Part shown: positions 30,882 through 61,233 of the stretch, piece by piece
Layout: every line of letters starts with the position of its first letter
How positions within the stretch are numbered: the stretch's first letter is position 1
Assembly (NCBI GenBank): GCA_965204765.1
Contig: CBDBFG010000002.1
Location: forward strand, 73,910 to 137,909
Reading direction: 5' to 3'
Length of the DNA: 64,000 nt
DNA from: Alphaproteobacteria bacterium
Lineage (GTDB): Bacteria > Pseudomonadota > Alphaproteobacteria > Caedimonadales > UBA9215
The notes under the pieces: generated by a model
Database searches by the model: none
What the model was told of the DNA's origin: nothing
The model's input: only the letters and a program-made list of their open reading frames with translations
Program-made: the position numbers and the translations under genes

Positions 30882-31760
30882 CTAGCCCATTTTAGAAAGA
30901 TGAACTAGCATCTTCCTAGCTTTGTCATGACCATGACTTGATGCTTTAATGAACCATTGCTTCGCTTCTTCTTTGTTCTCATAACCAAATTCTTTTCTAA
31001 AATAGATCATACCCAGCCAATATTCTGCTGTTGGGTTAAGCTTCTCAGCCGCTGCTTTCAGTAACAAAATTGCTTTTGGTATATCCCTAATATCTTGCTC
31101 TAATTTTAATATCCCCATATAAAAGAACCCTAAGTGCATATATGACACAGGAACACCAGCCCCTTGTTCAACAACTTCTTCGAGCATAGCAAACGCCAAC
31201 GGAAGATCTTTGTCCACTTCTTCACCACCCATAGCATGCATAAATCCTAAAAGTCCTTTTGCCGCCGAACATCCCTTCTCATTTGACTCAGATAACACCC
31301 TAAAAGCTTTACCAACATCTTTTTCCACAGCATGACCAAATAATAAAAATGCTCCTGTCATATATTTTCCTAAACAACAACCATTTGCTGCAGATCCTTG
31401 ATATAACCTAAATGCCTCGTTAATATCTTGCTCTACTCCAATTCCTTTATCATACATAAAACCTAATAAAAATTGCGCCAATCCATGGTGACTAGCCCCA
31501 TATCGACGCATTAGGTCACTATCAATTTCTAACTGGTCCTGTTCTGTACATTGCAATTGCTCTACCACTGACACACAATACTTACTGACCTCATCTGTTT
31601 TGTCACAAAAATCGCGCAGTGTGTGTTGCCAATTAACAAAACAAGGCGAATGTAATGCTTTAGAGGGATAGCCATCTAAAGCTTGATCATCTTCAGAAAC
31701 TGCATTAAGGCATTGCATCACGATACTTATTATTATCATTATTTTACATATTTGTGTCAT
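30882..31760 (-). CDS. secreted Sel1-repeat (SLR/TPR-like) protein
   Basis: Signal peptide and multiple Sel1 units (e.g. AQFLLGFMYDKGIGVEQDINEAFRLYQGSAANG, AEYWLGMIYF...NKEEAKQWFIKASSHGH). Confidence 0.8.
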   Translation of the reverse strand: MTQICKIMIIISIVMQCLNAVSEDDQALDGYPSKALHSPCFVNWQHTLRDFCDKTDEVSKYCVSVVEQLQCTEQDQLEIDSDLMRRYGASHHGLAQFLLGFMYDKGIGVEQDINEAFRLYQGSAANGCCLGKYMTGAFLLFGHAVEKDVGKAFRVLSESNEKGCSAAKGLLGFMHAMGGEEVDKDLPLAFAMLEEVVEQGAGVPVSYMHLGFFYMGILKLEQDIRDIPKAILLLKAAAEKLNPTAEYWLGMIYFRKEFGYENKEEAKQWFIKASSHGHDKARKMLVHLSKMG

Positions 31761-32108: not shown

Positions 32109-32645
32109 TCATATTTTACCTAATATGGCACTCATATCCTTTGATTTACTACCTCTAGATGATCCAAATTCAAAGGAATAAGCATCTTTTAAACAAGATC
32201 CAAATATTCCAGCAATAGTCGAAATAATCCCTACCGCCTCACCTGGCAATTCTGACTTGTAATGCGCCAATGCAACTAAACATGCTAATAAACCTGCGGC
32301 AGCGGCCAATACCATCACATCTGCTCTAACATTATATTTACCAGAATTAATAAAACTAATATCCCTTGCTCTAGCATTCTGTATATCTTGCAAGTAATTT
32401 ACTTCTATTTCTTTTTCTAAAGACAAAACCTCTGTTTGAAAACGCAATAATAACTTAGGATCTGTTTGTAAAACTTTTACGGCCTCACCTGGATCAGAAC
32501 TACCAGAAACTTTTTTCGCAATTTCTATTAAACTTTTGGCAATCTTATGCTGATCAGCAATATTTGATCTGTTTACCCCAAACCACTTTGCGATCGACGG
32601 AACCAAATCTGCTAAGGAACTTGCAATCTTTATAAATGACATCAT
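32109..32645 (-). CDS. holin-like membrane protein (resembles the 3TM GTA-release holin family)
   Basis: Soluble N-terminal half, the motif QDIQNARAR, then hydrophobic helices (VMVLAAAAGLLACLVAL, AVGIISTIAGIFG). Sits directly after the hydrolase gene. Confidence 0.5.
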   Translation of the reverse strand: MMSFIKIASSLADLVPSIAKWFGVNRSNIADQHKIAKSLIEIAKKVSGSSDPGEAVKVLQTDPKLLLRFQTEVLSLEKEIEVNYLQDIQNARARDISFINSGKYNVRADVMVLAAAAGLLACLVALAHYKSELPGEAVGIISTIAGIFGSCLKDAYSFEFGSSRGSKSKDMSAILGKI

Positions 32646-32680: not shown

Positions 32681-33121
32681 CTATTGGTAAAATACATGAT
32701 TACCTATCTCCAACTGATATTTCTTACCATTTGACCATTCTGGGAATTTAGACATTTTTTTACTATGATAATTAATGGAACCACCTGTAAGATCAGGCCA
32801 TTGATCAGTTAACACTTTTTCGGCCACATGCAAACAAATATCAAATATCTTATCGTCCCCCTTTTTGACATTACTAATAATTGCATAATTGGGATCTCTG
32901 GGATTCCAACACGAAAATTGATAAGGTTTTCTACATACCTCTTGTACTGTTGTGCCATACCATTTTTTCTTACTCTTGACCCTATTCATAATAACATTAG
33001 CAACTGAGATAAGAGAAGATAAACCACCATTCTTCTGATAATACTCTCCTCGTGATTCACCGTATATAGTACGCGCCATTAATTCTTTTTCTATAGCACT
33101 ATGTTTATTGTCTCTTGTCAT
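32681..33121 (-). CDS. SleB-type cell wall hydrolase (Hydrolase_2 family)
   Basis: ARTIYGESRGE...VANVIMNR...YQFSCWNP motifs characteristic of SleB-like phage and spore-cortex lytic enzymes. Confidence 0.85.
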   Translation of the reverse strand: MTRDNKHSAIEKELMARTIYGESRGEYYQKNGGLSSLISVANVIMNRVKSKKKWYGTTVQEVCRKPYQFSCWNPRDPNYAIISNVKKGDDKIFDICLHVAEKVLTDQWPDLTGGSINYHSKKMSKFPEWSNGKKYQLEIGNHVFYQ

Positions 33122-33266: not shown

Positions 33267-33629
33267 TTACAATTCCAACATAACAACACAATTAGTTAAA
33301 TCATCATCAAAATGAACTCCGCTTATATGGCTAGTTCTGCAGTAATATATTGTCTTATTTATTGTACACAGATCATACACTTCATACTGTTTATTACTTT
33401 GCCAAACTCCTGTTGGATTAAAAGTTAACATAGGCATCTCTGCCCGATAAATCTCATCACCAGCATGATTTTTAAATACCAACTCTACACCCTCAAGACT
33501 AATTGCAGATAAAGTATTGATACTTTCTCCTCCCTCTAATGAATTTAATCTACTATCTAATTCACGAAAATTATTATCAATTTCAACGATAGATAATGGA
33601 CTACCCTTTTCTTGCCTATAAATGATCAT
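33267..33629 (-). CDS. mini fibre/receptor-binding-like protein (fibre N-motif + CBM5/12-like C-terminus)
   Basis: N-terminus GSPLSIVEIDNNFRELD resembles the anchor motif of many phage fibres. The C-terminus WQSNKQYEVYDLCTINKTIYYCRTSHIS aligns to the CBM5/12 pattern W-x5-Y-x3-(D/Q)-L-x-T-x-N-x-x-x-Y-x-C-x3-H-x-S. Confidence 0.45.
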   Translation of the reverse strand: MIIYRQEKGSPLSIVEIDNNFRELDSRLNSLEGGESINTLSAISLEGVELVFKNHAGDEIYRAEMPMLTFNPTGVWQSNKQYEVYDLCTINKTIYYCRTSHISGVHFDDDLTNCVVMLEL

Positions 33630-33749
33630 GAGTATCTCTCCCTATGTGCAAATTAATCAAATTACGAAAATACCAATTAACAGAAATGTTATAAATAACC
33701 ATGTACTGAATTAATCAAAAACGATCTATAAAATAATACGAAAGTATGA

Positions 33750-34625
33750 CTACTTTTCTGCGATAAAATTTATTAATAATTGCCTTTTAACACGATTCAC
33801 CACCTTATAACCATTAGAGACATATCTTCTGTTATCATGACTCATTATTGTAATTTTCCCAGAATCTACATCTTCCCCTAATGAGGTAATATTTGGTTCC
33901 ATAATGTCTATCATTGTATAACAACAATCATTTACCATATGGCTAGACTCTACTTCTATACCGTGCTTTTGTGTCCAATTATGAGAAGTAAATAATAACG
34001 ATGTTTTCTCATTTTCAATGTTTGGATAGCACAAGCAATATGATTGAATACATTTGTTTAAATCTAGATTGCCACCTAATACACCACCCATAGGTATTAA
34101 TGGTGTAGAATCTTTGTAAACTTTACTAGATAAGGAACAAATTGTATTCAATCTACCATCACCCTCATCTATTTCATCTTTAAAAGAAATCTGGTCTAAT
34201 TCAGGAAGAATAAAATCTTTCTCATACAATATTGCAGGAATACCAAAATCTTTACTATTTTCTATACTTGTTAAAAACCCATTATTATTTTTATAACATT
34301 TATTAGCAAAAATTATTGTTAATCCAGAATAACCGTGCCTGATATTATAAGATTCAGAATCAGCAATACTAGTAGAGGCATACGCCATACCCTTCTGGTA
34401 TTGAAAAGTTATATTTCCACATCGATCTATTAAGGATGACTTAGGCACAATATCCGCCGACACAATAAACTGTTGCATACCAGAATCTAACTCAATATCT
34501 AGCAAAACATTCTTTGAACTCTGAGTATCTAAATCACGACGTTTATATTTTTTACTACCAAGATATGATAACGAGTCTACTGTAACAGTGGTATACTGAC
34601 CATTTAAGTAATTAAGTATATTCAT
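33750..34625 (-). CDS. hypothetical phage-cluster protein (291 aa)
   Basis: Abuts the upstream 575-aa ORF (4-nt gap) and is co-oriented with it. No motif recognised. Confidence 0.4.
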   Translation of the reverse strand: MNILNYLNGQYTTVTVDSLSYLGSKKYKRRDLDTQSSKNVLLDIELDSGMQQFIVSADIVPKSSLIDRCGNITFQYQKGMAYASTSIADSESYNIRHGYSGLTIIFANKCYKNNNGFLTSIENSKDFGIPAILYEKDFILPELDQISFKDEIDEGDGRLNTICSLSSKVYKDSTPLIPMGGVLGGNLDLNKCIQSYCLCYPNIENEKTSLLFTSHNWTQKHGIEVESSHMVNDCCYTMIDIMEPNITSLGEDVDSGKITIMSHDNRRYVSNGYKVVNRVKRQLLINFIAEK

Positions 34626-34628
34626 GCA

Positions 34629-36356
34629 TTAGCCATTATTGAGCAATTCTATTTGTTTTGGAGGATAATACTTTTCTGGAACACTGATATTAATCTGATC
34701 TTTTAATAAAGACCTACTATGAATTTTCTTTAAAGAAATTTTTACTCTAGTTTTACATTGCTGCATAACCTTGGGCAAATTATTTACAATGCCATTACAT
34801 GATACACTATCAATGTATTCTTCTTGCTCATCAGCATGATACTGCAAATTTATATCCTCTACTATATCAGATGCCAATAACCTCTCTGGATACATAACAT
34901 ACTCCTTATCCTCACAAGATCTGTAATCCAGATATCGTACACCAGCCTGCGTAGATAATAACTTATCCCCTAAGCTATAATCATTGCCAAACGCATTATC
35001 TTCGGCATAACGATTACCTTCAAAAAAATATTGCTGTCGATCACTTCCTATTGCAGAAGCAATAGTTATATATGCCAAGTTTATACCATTATTGGCTTTA
35101 AAGTTTATCTTCTTTATTTTTCCAACAACACAGCCTCCAGGTATCCTTTTATCTCTTATTTTAATCGTACTATCACAATCTAACGCAATTGCTACGTCCC
35201 AAGGACAACAAAAACTAATCTCTACACACCGCGAACTAAATGCCAAATATGCCTTTGCTATGTCCATTGCTCTATCCACACATTTTTTACCTTCATCAGT
35301 AATAAAAAAACTACCTTTTTTCTGAGTAAAAGACTGTGAATCCACTATATCATCAACACTATAAAGTTTAATATTTAATACCTTGGTTTTGCTGGGGCTA
35401 TATTGAAAATCTTGCACTCCACTTTGTAAGGTAAAGTTAACAGTTTCTGACCTTGGTTGTATATATTCCCAACCCAATTTTAAATAAGGACGAAAAGAGC
35501 GTTTCTTTAAACTTATAGTTTTTGTAGAATGCGATAATGAATTATATTCATCACACATGTTATCAAAACGACTAATAGTAATTTTTTTCTCCTCTAAAGA
35601 GGAAGATATTTCAGTAAGATCAGATTGTAATATCTGGTAGCCATTATTATAATTGTTCTCTATTTTCCACCAATTTTCTAATAGATTATTCCCTGTATAT
35701 GTTTGGATAACTTGGTTGTGAAAATGTGAATGAAAAATGTGATCTAAATTACTTGCCCCATCGTAATATTGCAACCAATTAGCCACTAAATTAACAGTAA
35801 TATTGTTCAAAGGAGAATGTAATATTTTTATTTTTAATGATTTAGGTAAAAAATGCTTACTAATGTCAATCTCTTTACTACCATAAAAAATATTTGATAA
35901 ACCTAATTTATCTTCATATCTATGCCAATATAACAACTCCTCTCGATTATCCAACATATCTTCTATTGCAGGCTGATCTGTATGATAATTATTTGAAAAT
36001 AACTCATTCCATTTTTCATTTTCTTTTAATTGTATCAACAGATTTTGGTAAAGATGCTCTTTCTTTTCGGTGATTGCTAAAAATTCCAATACAACTGTGT
36101 GCTGTTTGATATCAATAGGGCAATTAACTAATCTACCCTTAAAGACAGGATAGATCCTATCTTTATGCTTTGCACTTATAATTGCAAAACTTTCTTTTAC
36201 TAATCCTAATCTCTTGTGCTTAATTGTAATTTGTGCATAAGGAATTAAACCCTCTTCTTCCAAAATATTAATAGCAAATATTTCTTCGTCATATCGACAA
36301 TGAACATTCTGATCAAATGCTTCATCCGCAGCAACCCAAGCAAAATAAAATATCAT
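34629..36356 (-). CDS. hypothetical phage-cluster protein (575 aa)
   Basis: Largest ORF of the cluster, co-oriented. No motif recognised. Too short and not repeat- or coiled-coil-like enough to be a tape measure. Confidence 0.4.
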   Translation of the reverse strand: MIFYFAWVAADEAFDQNVHCRYDEEIFAINILEEEGLIPYAQITIKHKRLGLVKESFAIISAKHKDRIYPVFKGRLVNCPIDIKQHTVVLEFLAITEKKEHLYQNLLIQLKENEKWNELFSNNYHTDQPAIEDMLDNREELLYWHRYEDKLGLSNIFYGSKEIDISKHFLPKSLKIKILHSPLNNITVNLVANWLQYYDGASNLDHIFHSHFHNQVIQTYTGNNLLENWWKIENNYNNGYQILQSDLTEISSSLEEKKITISRFDNMCDEYNSLSHSTKTISLKKRSFRPYLKLGWEYIQPRSETVNFTLQSGVQDFQYSPSKTKVLNIKLYSVDDIVDSQSFTQKKGSFFITDEGKKCVDRAMDIAKAYLAFSSRCVEISFCCPWDVAIALDCDSTIKIRDKRIPGGCVVGKIKKINFKANNGINLAYITIASAIGSDRQQYFFEGNRYAEDNAFGNDYSLGDKLLSTQAGVRYLDYRSCEDKEYVMYPERLLASDIVEDINLQYHADEQEEYIDSVSCNGIVNNLPKVMQQCKTRVKISLKKIHSRSLLKDQINISVPEKYYPPKQIELLNNG

Positions 36357-36387
36357 AAAACACCCAAAATTTAAGATAATATATATT

Positions 36388-36912
36388 TTAAATCTCTTCT
36401 AAAGATATAGACCAGTTATTGGATTTTCCCCATTCACGCTCCAAGATAGCGAAATTTATTATCCTCATATATAATATAGGAGAATAAATTGCTATTAAAT
36501 CATCCGTCATAGAAGAGTTAATTTTTATAGTATTATCACCAACTATCTCATAATCTACGCTATGCAAATTTTCATTTTGTAACACGAGGGACTTTTTGAC
36601 AAAAGGCTTACTCAGGCTATATATATCACCATCCAAATTACTTACATCAATTATTTCGGATATCTTACTGACACAATATACTTTAACCGCCTTACCTATC
36701 CAAGACCGAGTAAAACCAGGCACATTTCTATCACTACACCTTATAGTCGAACTGTACTTACCTATCACTTCATTATTCACTAAGTAACACAGTTCTCCAT
36801 TCACGGTCCTAATAAATTGCCCACTATCAATAGGAGATAAAGTTTGCTCTATTTCTCGACAAGACAATAAAGGAAAGGTAACTCCCTCTATACATAATTG
36901 TGATTCATTCAT
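36388..36912 (-). CDS. hypothetical phage-cluster protein (174 aa)
   Basis: ATG at 36912 (MNESQLCIEGVTFPLL...) preferred over the GTG at 36939. No confident family match. Confidence 0.4.
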   Translation of the reverse strand: MNESQLCIEGVTFPLLSCREIEQTLSPIDSGQFIRTVNGELCYLVNNEVIGKYSSTIRCSDRNVPGFTRSWIGKAVKVYCVSKISEIIDVSNLDGDIYSLSKPFVKKSLVLQNENLHSVDYEIVGDNTIKINSSMTDDLIAIYSPILYMRIINFAILEREWGKSNNWSISLEEI

Positions 36913-36920
36913 TTTCTTCT

Positions 36921-37064
36921 CTAAACAAATAAAGACCACCTAGGCAAATTGCAATATTTACTCATTGCTCGCCTACGCAATTGATTTTCCAAGATTTCCG
37001 AAACTATTTCATCCTGATTATAGTAATATTCATCATCTAATAATTTTTCCTTATCATGTTGCAT
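36921..37064 (-). CDS. 47-aa ORF inside the phage cluster (below the ORF-track cutoff)
   Basis: Strong SD AGGAGGAAGCA before the ATG. MQHDKEKLLDDEYYYNQDEIVSEILENQLRRRAMSKYCNLPRWSLFV. Fills the gap between the g8-like and 174-aa ORFs. Confidence 0.35.
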   Translation of the reverse strand: MQHDKEKLLDDEYYYNQDEIVSEILENQLRRRAMSKYCNLPRWSLFV

Positions 37065-37078
37065 TGCTTCCTCCTACT

Positions 37079-37447
37079 CTAATATTTATTCACTAAAAAA
37101 TTAATATTTATAATACTAGTCAATTTACTATCATCTTTACTGAGACCACATGACTGATACTTAAAAACCAAGTCATCATGGTAAACATGGTAAAATTCTA
37201 AACAGTCTATAATTTGTTGTTTAATCGATAAAACCTCAGCCATACCTTTATAATTACTGCATATCTTAAGACAGAATGGTAAAACTGTATTCTGGATATC
37301 GCCAGGAATAAAAACCAGAAACGGCCTAGACAATTCCAAATTCATCACAGTCAATAGTTTTGTATTTTTTAATAATTGATTATATGCAAATACATGTTTT
37401 AAGCGTTGAAAAACTATTTTTTCCATCATCACACTATCAATCCTCAT
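37079..37447 (-). CDS. RcGTA g8-like / DUF3168-like head-tail joining protein (tentative)
   Basis: The call rests on position and size (122 aa, overlapping the gp7 stop). Sequence similarity is weak by eye. Confidence 0.4.
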   Translation of the reverse strand: MRIDSVMMEKIVFQRLKHVFAYNQLLKNTKLLTVMNLELSRPFLVFIPGDIQNTVLPFCLKICSNYKGMAEVLSIKQQIIDCLEFYHVYHDDLVFKYQSCGLSKDDSKLTSIININFLVNKY

Positions 37448-37787
37448 ATCCTATAAATGTCACATAGCTATTATTATTCGAGACATTTTCACTCACCACT
37501 TTTACAATAGTATTTTTATATTCTATTTTAGCATTGTATTGAATGTTTGATCCTTGTTGTGTAGATATTTCAAAAACTCTCTTATGCCTTGTAATAAAGC
37601 CAGAACTATTCTTAATAAAATTATACTTCTGAATATCATGAGAAGAGATAATCCGCACAGATGCCCAAATTTCCTGTTTATCTGACCATTGCAATTCATA
37701 ACCACCAAAATCATCTTCATAGTAGCACGGACTATATACGCGTATCCTATCATCCATACGCTGTTGATTATATTTCATGAATATCAT
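37437..37787 (-). CDS. phage head-tail adaptor (SPP1 gp16 / RcGTA g7-like)
   Basis: 116 aa. DDRIRVYSP...DDFGGYELQWSDKQEIWASVRIISSHD fits the head-tail adaptor pattern (R-x-i-x...G-x...W...vWA-x-v-x-p-x-s). Confidence 0.7.
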   Translation of the reverse strand: MIFMKYNQQRMDDRIRVYSPCYYEDDFGGYELQWSDKQEIWASVRIISSHDIQKYNFIKNSSGFITRHKRVFEISTQQGSNIQYNAKIEYKNTIVKVVSENVSNNNSYVTFIGYED

Positions 37788-37926: not shown

Positions 37927-38535
37927 CTACCCTAAACGATAGATTTTATAAGGCTTAATAAGTGTAACCACGCTATTATCTATTAACATACTAACGTTAT
38001 CATTTACCGCTGGTCTATTATTATATAAATGAGACAAAATTAACAGCACTGCCTGTTTAAGAGGTGCTGGTAACGTTTCTGAGTCATATCCTGCAATAAA
38101 CTCCAACTTGATAGATCCAGAAGTACAGCTATTTACTAGAGTATTATCACCAAAATGTATTTTTGCCGTACTACCTGACTCATCTACCCTAAAGTTTTCA
38201 ATATCCTTTTCATCATGATTTACAATCAGAGCTGGTAATGATGTTAATTCTATGAATGGTGATCGTGGAAATTCAATTCCTGCTACACCCTTAGATTTTA
38301 TACCACTAAGATACTTTTGATCACTTTTTGCTAATGCAAAACCACAATTAATTGTAAGCATCCATTTTTGTCGCAACAACGATCTAGAAGTATAAGATTC
38401 TATAGACACGCGCGCTGATTGAATCAAGGTATTTATCAATTCATTTTCTACATCATGATCAATTCTTAAAAAACTTTTTGCCTCTTCAAGGCTTACAGGT
38501 TCTTTATCTACTGTACTTATTCTTTTTAGCGCCAT
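37927..38535 (-). CDS. phage gp6-like head-tail connector (phiE125 gp8 / RcGTA g6-like)
   Basis: VSLEEAKSFLRIDHDVENELINTLIQSARVSIESYTSRSLLRQKW and C-terminal LPAPLKQAVLLILSHLYNNR are the classic signatures of this family. Confidence 0.8.
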   Translation of the reverse strand: MALKRISTVDKEPVSLEEAKSFLRIDHDVENELINTLIQSARVSIESYTSRSLLRQKWMLTINCGFALAKSDQKYLSGIKSKGVAGIEFPRSPFIELTSLPALIVNHDEKDIENFRVDESGSTAKIHFGDNTLVNSCTSGSIKLEFIAGYDSETLPAPLKQAVLLILSHLYNNRPAVNDNVSMLIDNSVVTLIKPYKIYRLG

Positions 38536-38840: not shown

Positions 38841-39944
38841 TTATGCAACTTTTAAGATACTCAAAGCATCAAAATTTATTACATCTCCACCCACTCTTTT
38901 AGTAGTATAAAACTCAACATGCGGTTTTGAACTATAAGGATCACGTAAGACATTCATCCCTTGACGATCAACAATTTGATAAGATTTAGCAAAATTACCA
39001 AAAACTATAGCCAAATTATCACTGCTCTCCAATGATGGCATATCATCGCATATTTCAACATTATAACCTAAAATAGTAGATGGATTACCAGCTCCAACAC
39101 TAGGTTGCCATAAATATCTACCATCATTATCTTGTAATTTCCTTATCTGTGCCAAAGTAGATCTAGACATTAACCAATTCGCATTATGCAAGTACTCGGT
39201 CTTAATCTTAGCATACATATCAATCAATTTATCTGCTAAATTATCATGATCTGCATCATAAGCGACACTAGCAAATTTACCCCATTCTGCATTTTCCACT
39301 GTATCATAACGCAAAATACCCTTAGGTTTATTGTTGCCATCACCATGCAAAAAAGCATGATTTTCTGTCTCTGCCATTTTGCATGCTATTTCCATAGCAA
39401 TCCATTCTTCAACATTAATTGCCGCATCATCCAATAATTTTTGTGTTGCTTTTGGTTTGGCATATATCTCATGTGCTGGAATAACCTTTTTACGCAATTC
39501 TGGTGTATCAGTTTCATCACGAGCATCATTTTCGGCACTCCACCCAACATCAAGATTTTTTCTATGCAATAAAATATCCACAGATGAACTTGATATTTGC
39601 ATTACACTAGATAGCTTACGCACCGGACTTAATCCATCTATATTTTGTTGGATACTATTTCTAATAATTTGGGGTATCAAATAACCACCATCACTATCTG
39701 TACCTGTGGATAGACTTTTCTTATCAAACGAGTGCATCTGATCTGTATTGCCAGATCTAACATAATGCACAAAATAGTTTTTATACTCGACCTCTTGTGA
39801 CCTATCTTCGATTATGTTACCAAGCTCTGGCCTCTTATTAGACAAATGCAATTGCTCTACTTCTTTTATTCGTTGCTCATTTTGAGTTTTATATTCTTGA
39901 AAAGACTGTACCAAGGTATCCACTGTTTTATTTAATGATGACAT
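38841..39944 (-). CDS. HK97-family major capsid protein
   Basis: N-terminal coiled delta/scaffold-like region, DSDGGYLIPQ, ENHAFLHGDGNNKPKGIL, LRDPYSSKPHVEFYTTKRVGG. AGGAG SD before the ATG. Confidence 0.92.
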   Translation of the reverse strand: MSSLNKTVDTLVQSFQEYKTQNEQRIKEVEQLHLSNKRPELGNIIEDRSQEVEYKNYFVHYVRSGNTDQMHSFDKKSLSTGTDSDGGYLIPQIIRNSIQQNIDGLSPVRKLSSVMQISSSSVDILLHRKNLDVGWSAENDARDETDTPELRKKVIPAHEIYAKPKATQKLLDDAAINVEEWIAMEIACKMAETENHAFLHGDGNNKPKGILRYDTVENAEWGKFASVAYDADHDNLADKLIDMYAKIKTEYLHNANWLMSRSTLAQIRKLQDNDGRYLWQPSVGAGNPSTILGYNVEICDDMPSLESSDNLAIVFGNFAKSYQIVDRQGMNVLRDPYSSKPHVEFYTTKRVGGDVINFDALSILKVA

Positions 39945-39961: not shown

Positions 39962-40440
39962 TTATATATTTATATTTGATATTTTGGCTTTATTATTGGC
40001 GGGAAAGGTTACTAAAGAAATTTCTACTAAATCCACTTCTGTTAATAAACGTATACAAGATTCATTACTATTTTTAACAGCCTGTACTACTTATAACCAA
40101 TTGATAACCCATCTATTGCTTTTGATTTCACAAGAGTATATGCTTCTTGTGCTTTTAATAAATCCAGTAATAATCTACCCTTTACTTTTAGCCCTTTATG
40201 GTCTTCTTCGATACTTAACCAAGTACCAATTATATGTTCAGGATTATGTTGCCATAACATCTTAGGCATTTGCTGACATAATTTCCACGATGCAATGGTT
40301 TGCGCAAAAGCACCTCTTACTACTCGATCATTCTGCTGATCAACTTCATCATAAATACTTGCATACCCTTCAAATATTCCTGAATTATCGATACTTTTAT
40401 TTAAACTCACATAGCGTTCTGCACGTTTGAATTCTAGCAT
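39962..40440 (-). pseudogene. HK97-family prohead protease interrupted by a frameshift
   Basis: Frame A (40440-40087) encodes 117 aa ending ...AIDGLSIGYK then TAG. The -1 frame from 40090 continues VVQAVKNSNESCIRLLTEVDLVEISLVTFPANNKAKISNINI to the stop at 39962, i.e. the conserved C-terminal L-x-E-V/I-S-L-V-x-x-P-A-N motif. Confidence 0.8.
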
Positions 40441-41642
40441 TTATCTAAACTATCTCCTCCTACTATTGGTTGATATCCAACTGCTTTTCTTTTTTCATTT
40501 ATTGTTAAAAAATCAGCCTTGGCAATCTTGGCCCATGCTTCCTCTCGTTTAGAAGAAAGTGCTGGTATAGAATCAATATCATAATTTAATCTAATATCTT
40601 CTCCAAACCACTGTGCTAACCAAGCGTTTAACTCATCAGTGACTAAATCTAACAAAGGCAAAATATTATCTTCCCATAAATGTAATCGAGCTTCTTTATA
40701 ATTTGCAAAAGTTGCATCCCCTAAAATACCTATTAAAATTGGAGGGACATTAAATGCCTGAGAAATTTCTCTAGAACTCAAATTTTTACCAGAAATAAAA
40801 TCTAAATCTTTAGGAGACAATCCCATCTCTTGCCAAACAAAATCACCATCAAGTATCATTACGCGACCTGAATTTTTTTCTCCTTCAATGATATTTTTCA
40901 AATCTGTTCTTAATTCAGTTAGTTGCTCTTTGGTTAATGATTCTTTGTATGCACCAGAGGATTTATTGACAATTAACGCTCCAGAAGGCCTACCACCATT
41001 TTGTAACAAAGATAAATTATGACTAGCCACCGCATTATGCTGATCTATTGAACAAGCAGCTGCTTCAATAGGACTCATACCATACCAATCATTTAAGGGA
41101 TTAAATAATTTAATGTGCAATACTCTAGATTTACCACTAGCAAAATTCGCTGGTAACAATTTTGTTCTACCATTGACATTATATTCATATCCAGAAACTA
41201 CACCATTTGAACTTGGCACTATTTTTACTCTATCAGGGCGCAGAACATACATTTCTTTAGGCAAACTAGCAATCTCAGATAGTTCAATATAACTATTACC
41301 CGCCAATAATAAATAAGCAAAAATAGATTCCATAAATGCACTACCAGCCTGATTGAAAGCTGGTCGATGCAATAAATCTAATATTGGATGATTGGTTAGC
41401 TCTTGCTCTCCCTTATACAATCTCCATGGCACACTAGCAGCACTTCTTGCAATCAGATTAACACATCGATAAACTATGACATTTTTATTATATCCATGCT
41501 TAGTTAGTGATTCATAATTTCTAGGAGTCCATATAGCTTTACCAACATTATTATACGCCACCATTGAACCAACCTGACTGGCTTTTACATCTTGATGATT
41601 GTTATTTTTTTTACGTGTAAATAATTGCGCTAAAATGCTCAT
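40434..41642 (-). CDS. HK97-family phage portal protein
   Basis: 402 aa. NDWYGMSPIEAAACSIDQHNAVASHNLSLLQNGGRPSGAL and later ILGD...NYKEARLHLWEDNILP fit the HK97 portal family. Overlaps the protease start. Confidence 0.9.
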   Translation of the reverse strand: MSILAQLFTRKKNNNHQDVKASQVGSMVAYNNVGKAIWTPRNYESLTKHGYNKNVIVYRCVNLIARSAASVPWRLYKGEQELTNHPILDLLHRPAFNQAGSAFMESIFAYLLLAGNSYIELSEIASLPKEMYVLRPDRVKIVPSSNGVVSGYEYNVNGRTKLLPANFASGKSRVLHIKLFNPLNDWYGMSPIEAAACSIDQHNAVASHNLSLLQNGGRPSGALIVNKSSGAYKESLTKEQLTELRTDLKNIIEGEKNSGRVMILDGDFVWQEMGLSPKDLDFISGKNLSSREISQAFNVPPILIGILGDATFANYKEARLHLWEDNILPLLDLVTDELNAWLAQWFGEDIRLNYDIDSIPALSSKREEAWAKIAKADFLTINEKRKAVGYQPIVGGDSLDKC

Positions 41643-42679: not shown

Positions 42680-43435
42680 ATGTTTAAAAAAATCCCCGTA
42701 ATATTGTCTGTTATCAGCTTTGTAATCCCAAATAGTTACGTACATGCAAAATATAATCACAAAAAAGAAAATAATCTTACATCAGTCGTCACAACACGTA
42801 TGATTAACCATTATGGTACGCAAAAATATATGCATGGTAAATCGCATTGGAAAGCAAACCGCTCTACCATGGGATGGAAAAAATTTGGAGAGGTATGGGG
42901 TTTTAAAAAATGGAATAATGTCAAATTAAAAGCTAAAAATGAACGTGGTAACAAATTCAGCAGATCAATAAACAAATCCAGCTGTCGCAAAAGCGATATT
43001 ACCCTAGTATCTTTTGACGTAATCTGGGCACAAGATAATTTTACTAAACAACTCAAAGTGCAATGCGTGCCCAAAAATACGCAAAATAAATTAAAAAACA
43101 TAGCAAATATTCTTAATAAATCTGAAATAAAAATAGACAGACCAAGTGCATACCTTGGCACATGGAAATTAGCAACAGATAATAACGGTACAAAAAAACT
43201 AAAAAAATTAATTGCGGCTGTACAAAAAGCATTTAATAAAAGAGCACAACTAGGTAAAGATAGCTCTTATAGTGCTGATTTTGACCAATATGATGAAGGA
43301 TTTGATAAATTTAGCAAAACACAACTGGTGCATAACGAAAAATCAGAAAAATATAATCAAATAGCAAAAGCACATAATCGACTGGTAGATGCTAGAAATA
43401 ATTTAGCAGATTATCTAAGCAAGATATATTCATAA
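42680..43435 (+). CDS. secreted lysine-rich protein, paralog of 47466-48659
   Basis: Signal peptide. Shares an N-domain with the 397-aa protein (GEVWGFKKW...SSCRK...LKVQCVPKN versus AEVWGYKKRW...KSCDRK...AKIHCVSNN). Helical C-terminus. Confidence 0.5.
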   Translation: MFKKIPVILSVISFVIPNSYVHAKYNHKKENNLTSVVTTRMINHYGTQKYMHGKSHWKANRSTMGWKKFGEVWGFKKWNNVKLKAKNERGNKFSRSINKSSCRKSDITLVSFDVIWAQDNFTKQLKVQCVPKNTQNKLKNIANILNKSEIKIDRPSAYLGTWKLATDNNGTKKLKKLIAAVQKAFNKRAQLGKDSSYSADFDQYDEGFDKFSKTQLVHNEKSEKYNQIAKAHNRLVDARNNLADYLSKIYS

Positions 43436-47465: not shown

Positions 47466-48659
47466 TTAAAGCTTTTCTAACAAAGCAAAATCATCATCAC
47501 CTAGGCTATCAATAATATCGCTATCTTCTATAAATTGCATTATGTCCCCTTCTTTAAATTTTGCATCGGACAATTTTTTAAAGAACTTACCTCTGAACTT
47601 CTTATCTTTATCTAGCTTGCCTATTAATGAATTCTTTGGAGAAGTTTTTTGAATAAAACTTTCTATCTCCATTAAGCCTTCTATTTTATTGTCTAAAACC
47701 TTCTTAAATCCTTTTAGGCCATTTTCTGCATCTGCTAAAGATTTACGCTTATCCTTAATATCATTCAACTTGCTGTTTACTTCTTTATCACCAGCATCCA
47801 AATCCTTCAGTAAACCTTTAACTTTCTTTATAAATTTGAACTTTTTTAATAGCGACTTACTACGCTTAATATCGTATTGCGTTTGTTGCAAAAATTTCTC
47901 TACCCCGCGTAACAGCACTCTACCTTCTGCAACCAAGTCATACCCTTCATTCATCAATGTTGATAGTTTGTCTGCATTCTGCCTTACTACTAACATTAAT
48001 CCACTTTCGCTGTTGGACAAATCTCTCATAAATTTATTAGATATATTGTTTTGCTCTTTTTCTAATTTCTTTTGAAATTTTTTCATCTTTTCTTCGTACG
48101 CCTTACCTCTGCTTTCCCAATAATTACTGCTCTCTTCTATTTTCTTTAAGCGATCTATCGAACCTAATCGACCAGCTAACTTAGTTTGATTATAATTAGT
48201 CTTTGGTCCTGTATATCTCTCTCGGTAGCTGTTATTTATCAGCCAATTATTTAGATCGTTATTGCTAACACAATGAATCTTGGCGTTACATTTATCACCG
48301 CGTTTACCATGTATTTGTACAACCGTAACTTTCCTATCACAGCTTTTACGCTTTAACCTTATGTGACAGTATTTTTTGTGTTTTATCTTACCTTTTTTGG
48401 CCTTTGTTACTTTATCAATATTGATTTTAATTTTACCCCATCTCTTTTTATAACCCCATACTTCTGCAGGTTTATGACGACCATCAAAACTATTAGTACT
48501 TGACCACACATGTTCTGGCATTTTTTCATCAAAAGCTTTTGAGGGCACCACCACAATATTAGTTTTCTTACTGCCCGTAAATTCGGCACAAGCAGCATTA
48601 ACCATCACTAGCAATGATAGTGTTTTGACAATATTGATTTTGAACATAGCTTTTATCAC
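47466..48659 (-). CDS. secreted lysine-rich protein with a long coiled-coil C-terminus, paralog of 42680-43435
   Basis: Signal peptide (LSLLVMVNAACA), shared EVWGYKK/Cys-pattern N-domain, K/E-rich heptad-like C-terminal half. Confidence 0.5.
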   Translation of the reverse strand: MIKAMFKINIVKTLSLLVMVNAACAEFTGSKKTNIVVVPSKAFDEKMPEHVWSSTNSFDGRHKPAEVWGYKKRWGKIKINIDKVTKAKKGKIKHKKYCHIRLKRKSCDRKVTVVQIHGKRGDKCNAKIHCVSNNDLNNWLINNSYRERYTGPKTNYNQTKLAGRLGSIDRLKKIEESSNYWESRGKAYEEKMKKFQKKLEKEQNNISNKFMRDLSNSESGLMLVVRQNADKLSTLMNEGYDLVAEGRVLLRGVEKFLQQTQYDIKRSKSLLKKFKFIKKVKGLLKDLDAGDKEVNSKLNDIKDKRKSLADAENGLKGFKKVLDNKIEGLMEIESFIQKTSPKNSLIGKLDKDKKFRGKFFKKLSDAKFKEGDIMQFIEDSDIIDSLGDDDFALLEKL

Positions 48660-56117: not shown

Positions 56118-57437
56118 TTACTCAATAGAGAATATCGCAGGAATATTTTTCACAGTTTTAGGGAGTAATAATTCTGTCACTGCCCAAACCAACGCATCTA
56201 ATCTATCCGGTGATTTTGCAGTTTTGCCAGGAACATAGTCAATCATTTGTTGCTCTAATATAGCTAAATCTCCATTGGACAAATGCTTTACTTTATTTCT
56301 TTGATATAGGCATAATACTGGCTCTGCTCGCAAAACTTTACCACGACTGGCATATACCCCTTTAAATGGAATACTATGGTCTATTGAGCGAATAATACTT
56401 TCAACTAAATCGCCGCCCTGATTATTTTCTGCTACTATACAATCCGCATTATAATTATGATATTCATGGATTGCTTTTCTGGCCCATTCTGCTGGACCAT
56501 ATCTACCACTTATATCCTTTAGCACATACACCGTATCACCATTATCCTTACCGGCCACTATAATACCAGTCTCATCACTTTTCACACCAGAAGTAACCGC
56601 AGGATCAATAGCGATGATTATTCGTGATAACTCAGGTATCTCTTTATTAATCACTTGTGCTTGATTGATTAAAGTGCGAGACCACAATGCCCCGGTATTA
56701 TCATTTAATATTTTCCCTTCAATTTCTTGTTGCCCCAAATTAGTACCAGAATATTTATTTTTTAAATAAGCAATAAACTGCGGAGATAAATTTTCTTGGT
56801 TATCAAATGTTGATCCTCGTGTAACATATACATCACCACTTTTTTCAGCCTCCAACAACTCTTGCAGCAATTTATTAGGCCTTGGAGTTGTCGTAATTAT
56901 TGCCCTGGGACATTTGCCTAATCTTAGGGAAAAATTCAACTGATCCCATACCGCTTTATCATTATTAAACTTAGCTAATTCATCTATCCAAGCAAAATCA
57001 AATTGTGGCCCACGTAATTGTTCATAATTTTCCGCACTAAATATTGTTGCAATACTACCATTAGACCAGGTTAAACGACGTTTAGATGGTTCAAATACTG
57101 GCCTTTCCTTGTCTGGGTACACTGCCAATAATCCACTCGAACCTTCGATCATTACATCGCGCACTTCTGTCTCACTTTGTCCGATTAAAGCAATTCTCTT
57201 GATAGCGTTAGTACTAACGAATTTTTTTATTGTTTCCGCCCCAGTCCTGGTCTTGCCAAACCCTCTACCGGCTAAAATCAGCCACACTCTCCAATTACCT
57301 GGCGGTATTTTCTGGCTAGGACGCGCGTATTTATCCCAATTATATTTTGCAATTAATTCTTGTTTAATATTGATTAGCAATGATATTTTACTACGTAATA
57401 TATGAAGTAATTTTCTATAATTCTTTGATCTTTTCAT
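56118..57437 (-). CDS. phage terminase large subunit, RcGTA g2-like
   Basis: WRVWLILAGRGFGKTRTGAETIKKF matches the Walker-A region of GTA-type TerL (W-x-x-W-L-x-x-G-G-R-G-x-G-K-T-R-x-G-A-E). Walker B-like FAWIDE. C-terminal nuclease region (IIAIDPA...DETGI...CIVAENNQGGD...DRLDALVWA). Confidence 0.88.
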   Translation of the reverse strand: MKRSKNYRKLLHILRSKISLLINIKQELIAKYNWDKYARPSQKIPPGNWRVWLILAGRGFGKTRTGAETIKKFVSTNAIKRIALIGQSETEVRDVMIEGSSGLLAVYPDKERPVFEPSKRRLTWSNGSIATIFSAENYEQLRGPQFDFAWIDELAKFNNDKAVWDQLNFSLRLGKCPRAIITTTPRPNKLLQELLEAEKSGDVYVTRGSTFDNQENLSPQFIAYLKNKYSGTNLGQQEIEGKILNDNTGALWSRTLINQAQVINKEIPELSRIIIAIDPAVTSGVKSDETGIIVAGKDNGDTVYVLKDISGRYGPAEWARKAIHEYHNYNADCIVAENNQGGDLVESIIRSIDHSIPFKGVYASRGKVLRAEPVLCLYQRNKVKHLSNGDLAILEQQMIDYVPGKTAKSPDRLDALVWAVTELLLPKTVKNIPAIFSIE

Positions 57438-58288: not shown

Positions 58289-60712
58289 TTAATGAGCAAC
58301 AATTACGTCATCTTTCTTACCTGTGGGATGATGCTCACGATCATTACTCCAGATAATAGATTTTGGCTGTTTTACTAATGCCGTTCTAATTACATCACCA
58401 ACATAAGAGACCGGCACTATGCGCAAACCATCTGTCACGTTCGCGGGAATTTCCACTAAATCTTTCTCGTTTTCTTTTGGTATAATTACTGTTTTAATCC
58501 CTGATCTATGCGCAGCTAATAATTTCTCTTTTAACCCACCGATAGGCAACACCCTTCCTCTTAATGTAATTTCACCAGTCATTGCCACATCTTTTTTTAC
58601 CGGGATACCGGTCAACATAGATACTATTGAAGTACAAATCGCAATACCAGCAGACGGACCATCTTTTGGCGTTGCCCCTTCAGGTACATGAATATGAATA
58701 TCATTTTTTTCAAATATTACCGGTGTAATGCCAAAATTGGTAGCGTTGGATTTAACGAAACTAGCCGCAGCTTGTACGGACTCTTGCATCACCTCACCCA
58801 ATTTTCCAGTGATAGTCATTTTTCCTTTACCAGCAACCATCAAAGCCTCTATAAATAAAATATCCCCTCCTACCTCAGTCCACGCCAGACCAGTAGTTGT
58901 TCCAACCATATCATTACTTTCTTGTTCGCCGTAAAGATATTTACGTACCCCCAGATACTTACTGACGGTACGTTCAGTAATTTTTATAGTCTTCTTCTTT
59001 TTATCACTAATAATATCTTTCAGTGCTTTTCGTAATAATTTTGATATTTCACGCTCAAGTGCACGCACCCCAGCTTCTCTTGTATAATATCTAATTACCT
59101 CACGTAACGCCTTGTCAGATATACTCCATTCACTCTCTGCTAGACCGTGTTTTTCTTTTTGCTTAGGAATTAAATGCTTACAAGCTATTTTTACTTTCTC
59201 ATCTTCTGTATAACCAGATAATCTAATAATCTCCATACGATCAAGCAAAGGTTGCGCCATATTCATACTATTAGCAGTAGTTACAAACATCACATCCGAC
59301 AGATTATAATCAACCTCAAGATAATGGTCATTAAATTTATCATTTTGCTCTGGATCAAGAACTTCTAGTAATGCCGAAGATGGGTCTCCACGCCAATCGG
59401 AACCTAACTTATCGATTTCATCTAATAAGAACAAAGGATTCGAAGAACCAGCTTTTTTCATCCCTTGTACTAACTTACCTGGCATAGAACCTATATAAGT
59501 CCGGCGATGACCACGAATTTCTGACTCATCACTTACCCCACCTAATGCCACTCTCACAAACTTTCTACCAGTAGCCTTGGCAATAGATTCACCTAATGAT
59601 GTTTTTCCAACACCAGGAGGACCAACTAAACATAAGATACTACCATTTACTTTTCCGACTCTTGACTGTACAGCTAGGTGCTCAATGATACGTTCTTTTA
59701 CCTTTTCAAGGCCATAATGATCTTTATTAAGTGTCTTTTCAGCCTCAAAAATATCTTTTTTTATTTTTGTGCTATTGCTCCATGGAATACCTAATAACCA
59801 ATCAAGATACCCTCGTACTACTGTTGCTTCAGATGACATGGGGTTCATAGCCTTTAATTTTTTCAATTCCCCTTCAGCCTTCTCTCTTGCTTCCTTGGTC
59901 AATTTTAATTTTTTTATCTTTGTGAATATCTCGTCTGCTTCATTCACTAAATCTGTTTCAGTACCTAATTCTTTTTGAATAGCCTTGATTTGTTCATTCA
60001 GATAGTACTCACGTTGAGATTTTTCCATTTGATGTTTTACTCGGCTTCTAATGCGCTTTTCAGCTTCTAGAATACCAATTTCTGCCTCCATAAAGCCGCA
60101 TATCGCCTCTAATCTGTCATTGATGTCTATAATCTCTAACAAATGCTGTTTTTTTTCGACTTTAATCAATAAATGAGCCGCTAATGTATCAGCAAGACCA
60201 CTAGGATTAGTTATCTTCATAACATTAGTTAATGCTTCTTGTGGAATCTTTGGGTTTAGCTTCAAGTATTTTTCAAACAATTTATTGGCTGTTCTAACAT
60301 GCGCTTCTGATTTGTTACGCACAACATTATCATTTATCGGGGAAAGCACAGTTACATCAGCCCTAAAACAATCCTTGGATAAATTTAAATCAACAATCTT
60401 CGCACGTTTTTCACCTTCAACTAATACTTTTACAGTACCATCGGGTAGTTTCAGCATCTGCAGTACCTGCGCCACTGTACCCATCTTATATAAGTCATCG
60501 TTTTTTGGCGTTTCTAACGATGGATCTTTTTGTGTAAGCAAAAGTATTTTTTGATTGCTACTCATAGCGTTTTTCAAAGACTGTATAGATTGCTCTCTTC
60601 CTACAAAGAGAGGAACTATCATATTAGGAAAAACAACAATATCACGCAAAGGCAACACTGGTAAATTACTTAAGTGGCTAGATCCACTTGGTGTACTGAC
60701 TATTTTGTCCAA
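58289..60712 (-). CDS. lon: ATP-dependent Lon protease
   Basis: LPVLPLRDIVVFP N-domain, Walker A GPPGVGKTS, catalytic PKDGPSAG. Likely TTG start at 60712, preceded by AAGGAG. The ORF track extends to a TTG at 60772. Confidence 0.93.
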   Translation of the reverse strand: MDKIVSTPSGSSHLSNLPVLPLRDIVVFPNMIVPLFVGREQSIQSLKNAMSSNQKILLLTQKDPSLETPKNDDLYKMGTVAQVLQMLKLPDGTVKVLVEGEKRAKIVDLNLSKDCFRADVTVLSPINDNVVRNKSEAHVRTANKLFEKYLKLNPKIPQEALTNVMKITNPSGLADTLAAHLLIKVEKKQHLLEIIDINDRLEAICGFMEAEIGILEAEKRIRSRVKHQMEKSQREYYLNEQIKAIQKELGTETDLVNEADEIFTKIKKLKLTKEAREKAEGELKKLKAMNPMSSEATVVRGYLDWLLGIPWSNSTKIKKDIFEAEKTLNKDHYGLEKVKERIIEHLAVQSRVGKVNGSILCLVGPPGVGKTSLGESIAKATGRKFVRVALGGVSDESEIRGHRRTYIGSMPGKLVQGMKKAGSSNPLFLLDEIDKLGSDWRGDPSSALLEVLDPEQNDKFNDHYLEVDYNLSDVMFVTTANSMNMAQPLLDRMEIIRLSGYTEDEKVKIACKHLIPKQKEKHGLAESEWSISDKALREVIRYYTREAGVRALEREISKLLRKALKDIISDKKKKTIKITERTVSKYLGVRKYLYGEQESNDMVGTTTGLAWTEVGGDILFIEALMVAGKGKMTITGKLGEVMQESVQAAASFVKSNATNFGITPVIFEKNDIHIHVPEGATPKDGPSAGIAICTSIVSMLTGIPVKKDVAMTGEITLRGRVLPIGGLKEKLLAAHRSGIKTVIIPKENEKDLVEIPANVTDGLRIVPVSYVGDVIRTALVKQPKSIIWSNDREHHPTGKKDDVIVAH

Positions 60713-61233
60713 AATTATCTCCTTACTATTGGCAATCAAAAGATGTCGAACAAGACTACAATAAAACAACAAAAACGAAAAGCAACAATATACATCACTT
60801 GCAACTTTTTATATTTTAAAATACTTCAAATTGTAAAATAACCAAAACAAATACAACGTTTCATCTACTTTTTGTAATATAACATTAACAAGAAAATTTT
60901 TATCTAAAAAAATAGCAATTAACATAAATATAGTTTCACATTGACAAATGACTATAAAAACTGATAGGATTCGCCTAGAAAATTATTGTACCGCAATGTA
61001 ATAGGGAGGAGCTCTTACATAACCCCTCCCCATATTGAGGAAACAGTAAGTGGTTGGTTAAAGACAGGGAAAAAACCAACCACAGTAATTTCAAAGGCAA
61101 CACACACCGTTTAAAACTACAAAATCAAACAGATAGTTAAGTTTTCTATTGGAACTTGAACCACTGCTATGTATAATTTATTACATATACTTTTTTGCGT
61201 GTCAAGAAAAAAAATGGAGTTATTTACAATAAA

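Follow-up and report, generated by a model that had tools for sequence, protein, structure and literature searches.

A probable minimal siphovirus-type tail tip beside the GTA-like head genes of an alphaproteobacterium

The window analysed here, a stretch of 64,000 nt from an Alphaproteobacteria bacterium, carries on its minus strand a cluster of head genes resembling those of gene transfer agents (GTAs), followed by five open reading frames (ORFs) of 47, 174, 575, 291 and 120 aa at positions 33267-37064. An earlier note on this DNA had described the five ORFs as an unrecognisable distal module, lying where the gene order of RcGTA or of a siphovirus would place the major tail protein, the chaperones, a long tape measure and the genes g12-g15. 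The coordinates bear out this description, and so do the sequence searches: the 47-, 174-, 575- and 291-aa proteins have no significant match in Pfam, PHROGs or NCBIfam, and PDB sequence-profile searches with the unrecognised proteins of the module returned no match. None of the five ORFs is long or repetitive enough for a normal tape measure, as the note had also held.

The head side of the cluster is conventional. It encodes an HK97-type portal (40434-41642, 402 aa; TIGR01537, E = 4e-67), an HK97-family prohead protease (39962-40440; TIGR01543 over residues 21-117 only), an HK97-type major capsid protein (38841-39944, 367 aa; TIGR01554, E = 7e-105) and a gp6-type head-tail adaptor, Ad1 (37927-38535, 202 aa; PF05135, E = 1e-13; phrog_40, E = 5e-21; TIGR02215), all of them on the minus strand. 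These families are not specific to GTAs. The protease gene is frameshifted: DNA alignment places a deletion of 1 nt relative to the closest relative, L006, at about 40090/40091. A 117-aa ORF (40440-40087) ends in ...GLSIGYK, and the 42 C-terminal residues lie in another frame, where the conserved C-terminus VVQAVKNS...LVTFPANNKAKISNINI can be read. The protease orthologues called in the relatives are intact, with 159-187 aa. The break is either a pseudogene or an assembly error.

The neck genes come next on the same strand. A head-completion or stopper protein (37437-37787, 116 aa) matches PF05521 Phage_HCP (27 bits, cut-off 25; E = 6.9e-6), and a 122-aa protein (37079-37447), the g8-like gene of the earlier note, would be a tail-completion or terminator-like protein. 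The 122-aa protein of the window has no family match in Pfam, PHROGs or NCBIfam. Among its positional orthologues, that of L021 matches PF11367 Tail_completion_gp17 above the cut-off (E = 1.3e-6, 29 bits), and those of L009 (7e-5, 23.3 bits) and L020 (2e-3, 18.6 bits) match it more weakly. A neck composed of Ad1, Phage_HCP and a tail-completion-like protein, as these family matches predict it, argues for a head made to meet a tail.

The large terminase is solitary (56118-57437, minus strand, 439 aa; Terminase_6N, E = 2e-28; Terminase_6C, E = 4e-14) and stands apart from the portal gene, at a distance of about 14.5 kb; none of its neighbours is a recognisable phage gene. On one side of the terminase, the next large gene encodes the Lon protease (58289-60772).

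As the earlier note had suggested, we looked for the same block of genes in related genomes and metagenomes, searching up to 10 kb on each side of the matched gene. The module is present in about a dozen distinct loci (genomes and metagenome contigs) of uncultured Alphaproteobacteria, one of them labelled Candidatus Paracaedibacteraceae. The gene order is invariant: portal, protease, capsid, adaptor, a gene of about 110 aa and one of about 125 aa, then a small ORF (30-66 aa), a gene of about 170 aa, one of 508-644 aa and one of 222-310 aa, and finally an optional gene of 125-184 aa, a hydrolase and a gene of 177-178 aa. Several of the related contigs are partial, and orthologues cover most, not all, of the five ORFs. 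Their matching lengths refute the possibility, raised in the earlier note, that the ORFs are frameshifted remnants of larger genes. In the window as in the relatives, the module is chromosomal and apparently vertically inherited, contains no integrase or replication genes and is flanked by housekeeping genes, with polA close by in several loci and in the window.

Rough values of the ratio of non-synonymous to synonymous substitution rates (dN/dS) were obtained by comparing L001 with L004: 0.07 for the small ORF, 0.04 for the 172-aa counterpart of the 174-aa gene, 0.09 for the counterpart of the 575-aa gene, 0.17 for the 291-aa family, 0.18 for the 125-aa gene and 0.04 for the 178-aa protein, against 0.06 for polA. 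Over the module, dN/dS ranges from 0.02 to 0.24, far below 1 throughout. Judged by these substitution patterns, the module is under purifying selection and consists of real genes, not chance ORFs.

The largest of the five ORFs encodes the 575-aa protein (34629-36356, minus strand). A word-indexed homologue search found one relative, even with a four-sequence profile; an exhaustive HMMER search collected a family of 1213 representative proteins (E <= 1e-3). AlphaFold2 modelled the protein with an alignment of 144 relatives at a pLDDT of 91.6 and a pTM of 0.89. A Foldseek search of the PDB gave 46 matches at E < 1e-3; the probability is at least 0.99 for all except two of them, and those that could be identified by name are central hubs or spikes. 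They include AlgoCIS, the contractile injection systems (CIS) of Anabaena and Streptomyces, PVC, VgrG of type VI secretion systems (T6SS), the MuSo2 43-kDa protein, Mu gp44, the pyocin R2 hub, 80alpha, Listeria gp18, T4 gp27, Bxb1 and T5. The TM-scores, normalised to targets of the size of Mu gp44, are 0.5-0.57. Among the 50 listed PDB matches there is no podophage nozzle, T7-type adaptor or tail-tubular protein. A tblastn search of 50,697 phage records with the 575-aa and 291-aa proteins found nothing, and with two phage-type hubs as queries the genomes of cultured phages likewise yielded no usable match.

Siphophage-like tail modules harbour distant members of the hub family (L013, L014/L015, L025 and L026). 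Their order is a putative tube protein, a chaperone, a tape measure (648-957 aa, with PF10145 in two), and then the homologues of the 174-aa protein and of the hub. L014/L015 begin with a lambda-type decoration protein, capsid E, Phage_attach and a putative tube protein (UCP028589); two genes in chaperone position come next, then the tape measure (880 aa, PF10145), a gene of 171 aa and the hub, of 858 aa. L026 carries a Pre_tape_measure chaperone, a 957-aa tape measure, a 170-aa gene and an 849-aa hub, and L025 and L013 share this layout. The hubs of the bacterial loci are 508-644 aa long, against 849-905 aa in the five phage-type members compared.

Hubs of relatives carry a CBM5/12 insertion of about 60 residues at about residues 335-345 (P0193, E = 4e-12), a site that fits an exposed loop on a tail-tip protein. 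The insertion was seen against P0002, P0193 and P0231, in a low-confidence loop; the window hub is without it. A module of this type probably also ends the neighbouring 120-aa protein.

The 174-aa protein (36388-36912, minus strand) is encoded 3' of the 47-aa ORF and 5' of the hub gene. Its length is counted from an ATG; the mechanical ORF, from an upstream GTG, has 183 aa, and the orthologues begin at the ATG and not at the GTG. A profile search gave a family of 222 relatives of 160-189 aa, and AlphaFold2 modelled the protein, with an alignment of 117 relatives, at a pLDDT of 91.8. Foldseek matches of this model with a probability of about 0.8 or more are mostly tail, neck or baseplate chains of phages and phage-like particles, many with the tube fold: the JBD30 baseplate, neck chains of phage 812, T5/DT57C pb9, diffocin, RcGTA tail chains and the R4C tail tube. 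For the JBD30 baseplate, pb9, the RcGTA tail chains and the R4C tube the probability is 0.87-0.99. The BFVD matches include tail proteins (distal, minor and major) and a 'DNA circularization' domain of Mu type. The predicted fold is a beta-sandwich like that of tail tubes. T5 pb9 is the archetypal distal tail protein (Dit), which in known systems forms a hexameric ring of tube fold, and the Tal hub is a trimer.

Homology and gene order point the same way. By hhalign, the 174-aa family is related to the 171-aa gene that follows the tape measure in L014 (probability 99.9%, E = 2e-32) and to the 157-aa gene in the same position in L013 (99.5%, E = 8e-23). A scan of IMG/VR with phage-type hubs gave 80 viral loci; in 79 of them the gene immediately before the hub is a Dit homologue, and in most of those 79 the next gene upstream is a tape measure of 570-1500 aa. 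Because of this homology and of this order, we regard the 174- and 575-aa proteins as the Dit-Tal pair of a large uncultured group of long-tailed phages. Predicted folds and profile homology together make it very probable that the 174-aa protein is a Dit and the 575-aa protein a hub.

In most relatives, a gene for an EamA-family transporter lies on the opposite strand between the Dit and hub genes (L001 8925-9881, L004 8923-9927, L005 547-1536, L007 10540-11478, L008 10519-11517, L009 10510-11487 and L010 5877-6812). Even between genomes that are only distantly related, the site of insertion is the same; neither the window nor L006, its closest relative, has the gene.

Upstream of the 47-aa ORF (36921-37064, minus strand) there is a strong Shine-Dalgarno sequence (AGGAGG). 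Every locus examined has kept such a small ORF, of 30-66 aa, directly upstream of Dit, in the slot that the tape measure occupies in the related phages. A few residues from its end it always carries the motif [LK]P[RH]W, and the tape measures of the related phages end in '...L.RFA..RQ..SAGRKP[SGTN]W..'. The first set of loci contains 447 ORFs with 100 aa or more; of these, only the four tape measures have P.W within their last 8 residues, and the background of a terminal P.W in other ORFs is 0.6%. When the profile of the small-ORF family was compared by hhalign with that of 53 tape-measure C-termini, the score was 18.7 (P = 8e-4), over a short alignment that reaches to within a few residues of both C-termini. 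With 300 column shuffles as controls the score was 7.1 +/- 1.6 (maximum 14.2), and with the reversed profile 6.9. A 42-aa ORF of L013 (8983-9111), located between tape measure and Dit, was considered as a counterpart and rejected; it is strongly hydrophobic and unrelated to the 47-aa ORF of the window.

In long-tailed phages, the C-terminal segment of the tape measure lies in the lumen of Dit and hub. The small ORF has a somewhat better than even chance, judging by its position and its C-terminal sequence, of being the surviving 3' end of a tape-measure gene. It is the only candidate at the locus, and with 47 aa (30-66 in the orthologues) it is not the long, largely helical, length-setting protein that a tape measure normally is. 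In RcGTA, where each disc measures 38.3 A, five tube discs and the distal tail disc are filled by a tape measure of 216 residues (PMC7296036). By the same scaling, 30-66 residues would span one or two discs, that is, the Dit ring alone.

The distance from the adaptor to Dit is about 0.8-1.0 kb in the window and in every bacterial locus, and it is taken up by the stopper, the gene of about 120 aa and the small ORF. A gap of this size with three small genes leaves no room for a tube or a tape measure. Homologues of the tube, chaperones and tape measure of the phage lineage were not found in the 64-kb window or in the flanks of the related loci, and Pfam and PHROGs showed no such genes in the cluster. 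What the earlier note had said of the major tail protein, the chaperones and a long tape measure, that they are lacking at the locus, thus holds.

Downstream of the hub, the 291-aa protein (33750-34625, minus strand) has positional orthologues in all loci that reach that far. They diverge fast, at 14-23% identity, and the profile of the family finds them with E-values of 1e-17 (L008), 2e-10 (L021), 7e-5 (L009) and 3e-4 (L007). Two candidate relationships were rejected: to the genes downstream of the L014 hub, for which hhalign gives a probability of 0.3%, and to the C-terminal extension of the long phage hubs, for which there were no matches among the fetched proteins. Position and evolutionary rate mark the 291-aa protein as a putative peripheral tail-tip or receptor-binding protein. 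The 120-aa protein (33267-33629, minus strand), whose gene is absent from L005 and L007, shows weak tail-collar and tail-fibre PHROG matches at its N-terminus. Its C-terminal match to CBM_5_12 (PF02839; E = 0.012) scores 16.1 bits, below the cut-off of 26.2; the orthologue of L008 passes this cut-off (5.8e-6, 26.7 bits) and that of L009 reaches 22 bits (1.7e-4). We read the 120-aa protein, on these matches, as a small glycan-binding fibre or knob. A SleB-type cell-wall hydrolase follows (32681-33121, minus strand, 146 aa; PF07486 Hydrolase_2, E = 1e-18; PHROG endolysin), syntenic in every locus that reaches that far. The last gene of the module, always 3' of the hydrolase, encodes a hydrophobic, apparently membrane-associated protein of 178 aa (32109-32645, minus strand; phrog_1544, E = 7e-21), which is highly conserved among the relatives (phmmer E = 1e-53 to 1e-69) and may be holin-like, to judge from its position.

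Loci of this type have been described before. In the GTA clusters of Holosporaceae, head genes are kept, tail genes are not detectable, and the adaptor is followed by unknown genes (George et al. 2022, PMC9254644). In the Holosporaceae and Rickettsiales clusters, the head and neck genes are under purifying selection and the terminase lies elsewhere (PMC9254644). The window cluster shares with these 'head-only' clusters the type of locus, the conserved head and neck, the detached terminase and the unassigned genes after the adaptor. It differs in that the downstream genes, left unassigned in PMC9254644, can here be related to a Dit, a hub, a CBM5/12 fibre-like protein and a probable tape-measure relic. 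We found no paper that assigns these downstream genes.

The tail of RcGTA consists of the stopper g7, the terminator g8, the tube g9, the tape measure g11, the distal tail protein g12, the hub g13 and the megatron g15 (PMC7296036). Like RcGTA, the window cluster is chromosomal, without replication or integration genes (its terminase lies apart), and combines an HK97-type portal, protease and capsid with an Ad1 adaptor and a stopper. In both, a distal tail protein of tube fold precedes a hub that contains gp27-like domains, and proteins of the tail tip bear glycan-binding modules, which for the window are predicted ones. However, the window cluster lacks the g9 tube, the chaperones g10/g10.1 and the 216-aa tape measure, and includes a SleB-type hydrolase and a membrane protein. 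The gp27-like domains, which RcGTA splits between g13 and g15 (PMC7296036), are found here in a single unsplit chain of gp27/VgrG type. An hmmscan against Pfam (E <= 1) of the ten proteins from the adaptor to position 32109 found none of DUF2460, DUF2163/Phage_BR0599, NlpC/P60 or the GTA TIM-barrel/megatron, and no RcGTA baseplate chain is among the top 50 matches of the hub model. On every feature tested, the module falls outside the RcGTA tail set (g9-g15). The earlier note was right that there is no detectable homology to g12-g15. It had also considered that the ORFs might be ordinary diverged homologues of g9-g15; this stands as far as function goes, the two proteins being counterparts of g12 and g13, and fails for the sequence families, which are different, and for the unsplit architecture of the hub.

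Parallels are also found among phages. The Dit-Tal initiators (T5 pb9/pb3, 80alpha, Mu gp43/gp44 and the lambda-like uncultured L014/L026) have the same folds and the same order of Dit and then hub, and the uncultured pair of L014/L026 is clearly homologous in sequence to that of the window. The difference lies upstream of Dit: in the phages there are a tube gene and a tape measure of 570-1500 aa, whereas in the window there are the neck genes and the 47-aa ORF. The spikes of the VgrG and extracellular contractile injection system type (PVC8, AlgoCIS, Anabaena CIS and T6SS VgrG) are the best Foldseek matches of the hub (E = 1e-9 to 1e-10, 520-560 aligned columns). Unlike them, the 575-aa model shows no evident beta-helical needle in its secondary structure, and genes for a sheath, a baseplate wedge or PAAR are lacking; the hub gene lies among capsid and neck genes and not in a contractile system.

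We propose that the region probably encodes a minimal siphovirus-type tail tip, and that this tip sits straight on the neck of an HK97 head that is GTA-like and fixed in the chromosome. That the resulting short tail has no tube at all seems a little likelier to be true than false. The proposal builds on the folds, homologies, gene order, conservation and purifying selection described above, and the short-tailed particle on an HK97/GTA head and neck, which the earlier note had put forward, remains in our opinion the most economical reading. In such a particle, the portal would be followed by Ad1, the stopper, the completion ring, a single Dit hexamer and the hub trimer, making up a stubby, non-contractile tail with a predicted length of about 20 nm at most and without a striated tube. 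The hub would close the channel and open to release the DNA, and the small peptide would sit in the lumen of Dit and hub as a plug. The 291- and 120-aa proteins would be placed on the periphery of the tip, where CBM5/12 modules could mediate adsorption to a glycan, and the SleB-type hydrolase and the 178-aa membrane protein could serve host lysis or penetration of the wall. The origin of such a tail may be a natural conversion of a siphovirus tail into a stubby one, in which the tube and the chaperones were lost, the tape measure was cut to its tip-binding C-terminus of 30-66 codons, and the result was fixed in a bacterial lineage; we rate this history as possible, at just short of even chances.

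Several points weigh against this proposal. The frameshift in the protease gene means that the organism of the window may not make mature particles. The Foldseek matches of the 174-aa model have E-values from 1.5e-3 at best to 0.2 and TM-scores of 0.3-0.45; since they are individually weak, the assignment of Dit leans mainly on homology and gene position. For the small ORF, hhalign gives the link to tape measures a probability of 24-28%, and plain searches with hidden Markov models against tape-measure C-termini, in both directions, were not significant (E = 4.6 to 11). The link of the 122-aa protein of the window to SPP1 gp17-type tail-completion proteins is indirect and weak, the comparison of the window-type family with the PF11367-matching family by hhalign giving P = 1e-3. 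The 291-aa protein has no assignment, with no match in Pfam, PHROGs, PDB or the phage records. The search for tube, chaperones and tape measure used the families of the phage lineage and Pfam, not structure, and covered 64 kb of this genome and flanks of up to 10 kb in the relatives; such genes could lie elsewhere in the genome. The dN/dS values are rough because dS between L001 and L004 is 1-4, close to saturation. Finally, the stoichiometries and the docking of the completion ring directly on Dit are taken by analogy from the known behaviour of these folds, and we likewise infer the plug role of the small protein and the production of particles.

The scope of the search for tube and tape-measure genes bears on the first alternative, an ordinary long non-contractile tail like that of RcGTA, for which the tube, the chaperones and a tape measure of normal size would be encoded at another place in the genome. 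GTA genes are scattered in these lineages (PMC9254644), the terminase of the window lies apart from the portal, and only 64 kb of the genome was covered. However, no homologue of the tube, chaperone or tape measure of the related phages was found in the window or in the flank of any related locus, and in complete Holosporaceae genomes DELTA-BLAST and hidden Markov models found no tube or tape-measure genes (George et al., PMC9254644). The tape-measure slot is moreover filled by a conserved small ORF with a tape-measure-like C-terminus, and the order from neck to Dit is tight and unvarying in all bacterial loci examined. We therefore consider a long tail unlikely.

It is equally unlikely, in our view, that the cluster is a decaying remnant, functional in ancestors and relatives and here heading for loss without making particles. 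The 1-nt deletion in the protease gene would agree with this, and pseudogenisation of tail genes is common in endosymbionts (George et al., PMC9254644). But a lone frameshift could be an assembly or sequencing error, all other genes of the module are full-length in the window and can be aligned with their orthologues from end to end, and dN/dS in the relatives is 0.04-0.18. Besides, this explanation concerns present activity only and leaves the identities of the genes unaffected.

A third explanation, improbable on the evidence collected here, is that head and hub have been repurposed as a device for host interaction, binding or puncturing host or vacuolar membranes, with no interbacterial DNA delivery. 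This was speculated by George et al., and such clusters are retained in clonal endosymbionts, where gene transfer is of little obvious value (PMC9254644). The resemblance of the hub to VgrG and to eCIS (extracellular contractile injection system) spikes, and the CBM5/12 modules on the hub and the fibre of relatives, would suit such a role. Against it, the portal, large terminase, adaptor and stopper are retained, which argues for DNA packaging, and no effector or cargo was evident in the analysis.

The podovirus-type tail suggested in the earlier note, with the 174-aa protein as adaptor (tail tubular A) and the 575-aa protein as nozzle (tail tubular B), can be dismissed as extremely unlikely: the sizes of the pair, its position right after the head and neck genes and the expected short tail do resemble T7 gp11/gp12, and two partial Foldseek matches of the 174-aa model (68-75 columns) are podophage tail-complex chains (HRP29 8es4_F and Kp7 7y22_e), but the full-length matches of that model are Dit and tube proteins, the 50 listed matches of the 575-aa model are nearly all baseplate or tail-tip hubs, spikes or VgrG, and both proteins have their homologues in the pair encoded after the tape measure in contigs of long-tailed phages, so that on fold and homology they belong to the Dit and Tal families of long-tailed phages.

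If the minimal tail tip that we propose is real, a single Dit ring with a VgrG-like hub on a siphovirus-type neck would be an architecture undescribed for any phage or GTA. It would also give a structural answer to why the GTAs of endosymbionts look 'tail-less'. The puzzle left by George et al. (2022) was that in Holosporaceae and related endosymbionts GTA head genes are under strong purifying selection apparently without a tail, and most of the downstream genes now have an assignment. With a Dit, a hub, a fibre-like protein and a probable tape-measure stub assigned, the particles are probably not tail-less, and they likely carry a minimal device for adsorption and for closing the channel. The type of locus was already known; new are the identities of the distal genes, the absence of the tube and of the body of the tape measure at the level of the locus, and the probable tape-measure stub. 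The analysis provides a concrete model of the particle and puts names to two large uncharacterised families, Dit (222 matches) and hub (1213 representative proteins). It would further add a rare example of a long tail reduced to a short one with the tip proteins of long-tailed phages kept, which bears on the interconversion of tail morphotypes.

Some observations concern the surroundings of the module and its relatives. Three IMG/VR contigs catalogued as viral (L010, L011 and L012) carry the bacterial module from portal to Dit and not a phage genome, L010 additionally with EamA and hub; these are probably GTA loci that were wrongly taken for viruses. The window also encodes a Sel1-repeat protein of 292 aa with a hydrophobic N-terminus (30882-31760, minus strand), about 350 bp beyond the end of the module at 32109. 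Sel1-repeat proteins are typical of intracellular symbionts, and its presence fits an endosymbiont-type origin of the window. On either side of polA there is a lysine-rich protein, of 251 aa (42680-43435, plus strand) and 397 aa (47466-48659, minus strand), each with a hydrophobic, signal-peptide-like N-terminus and no Pfam match. By eye, the two have in common the short motifs EVWGFKKW / EVWGYKKRW and a Cys-containing stretch, and they may be paralogous secreted or effector proteins.

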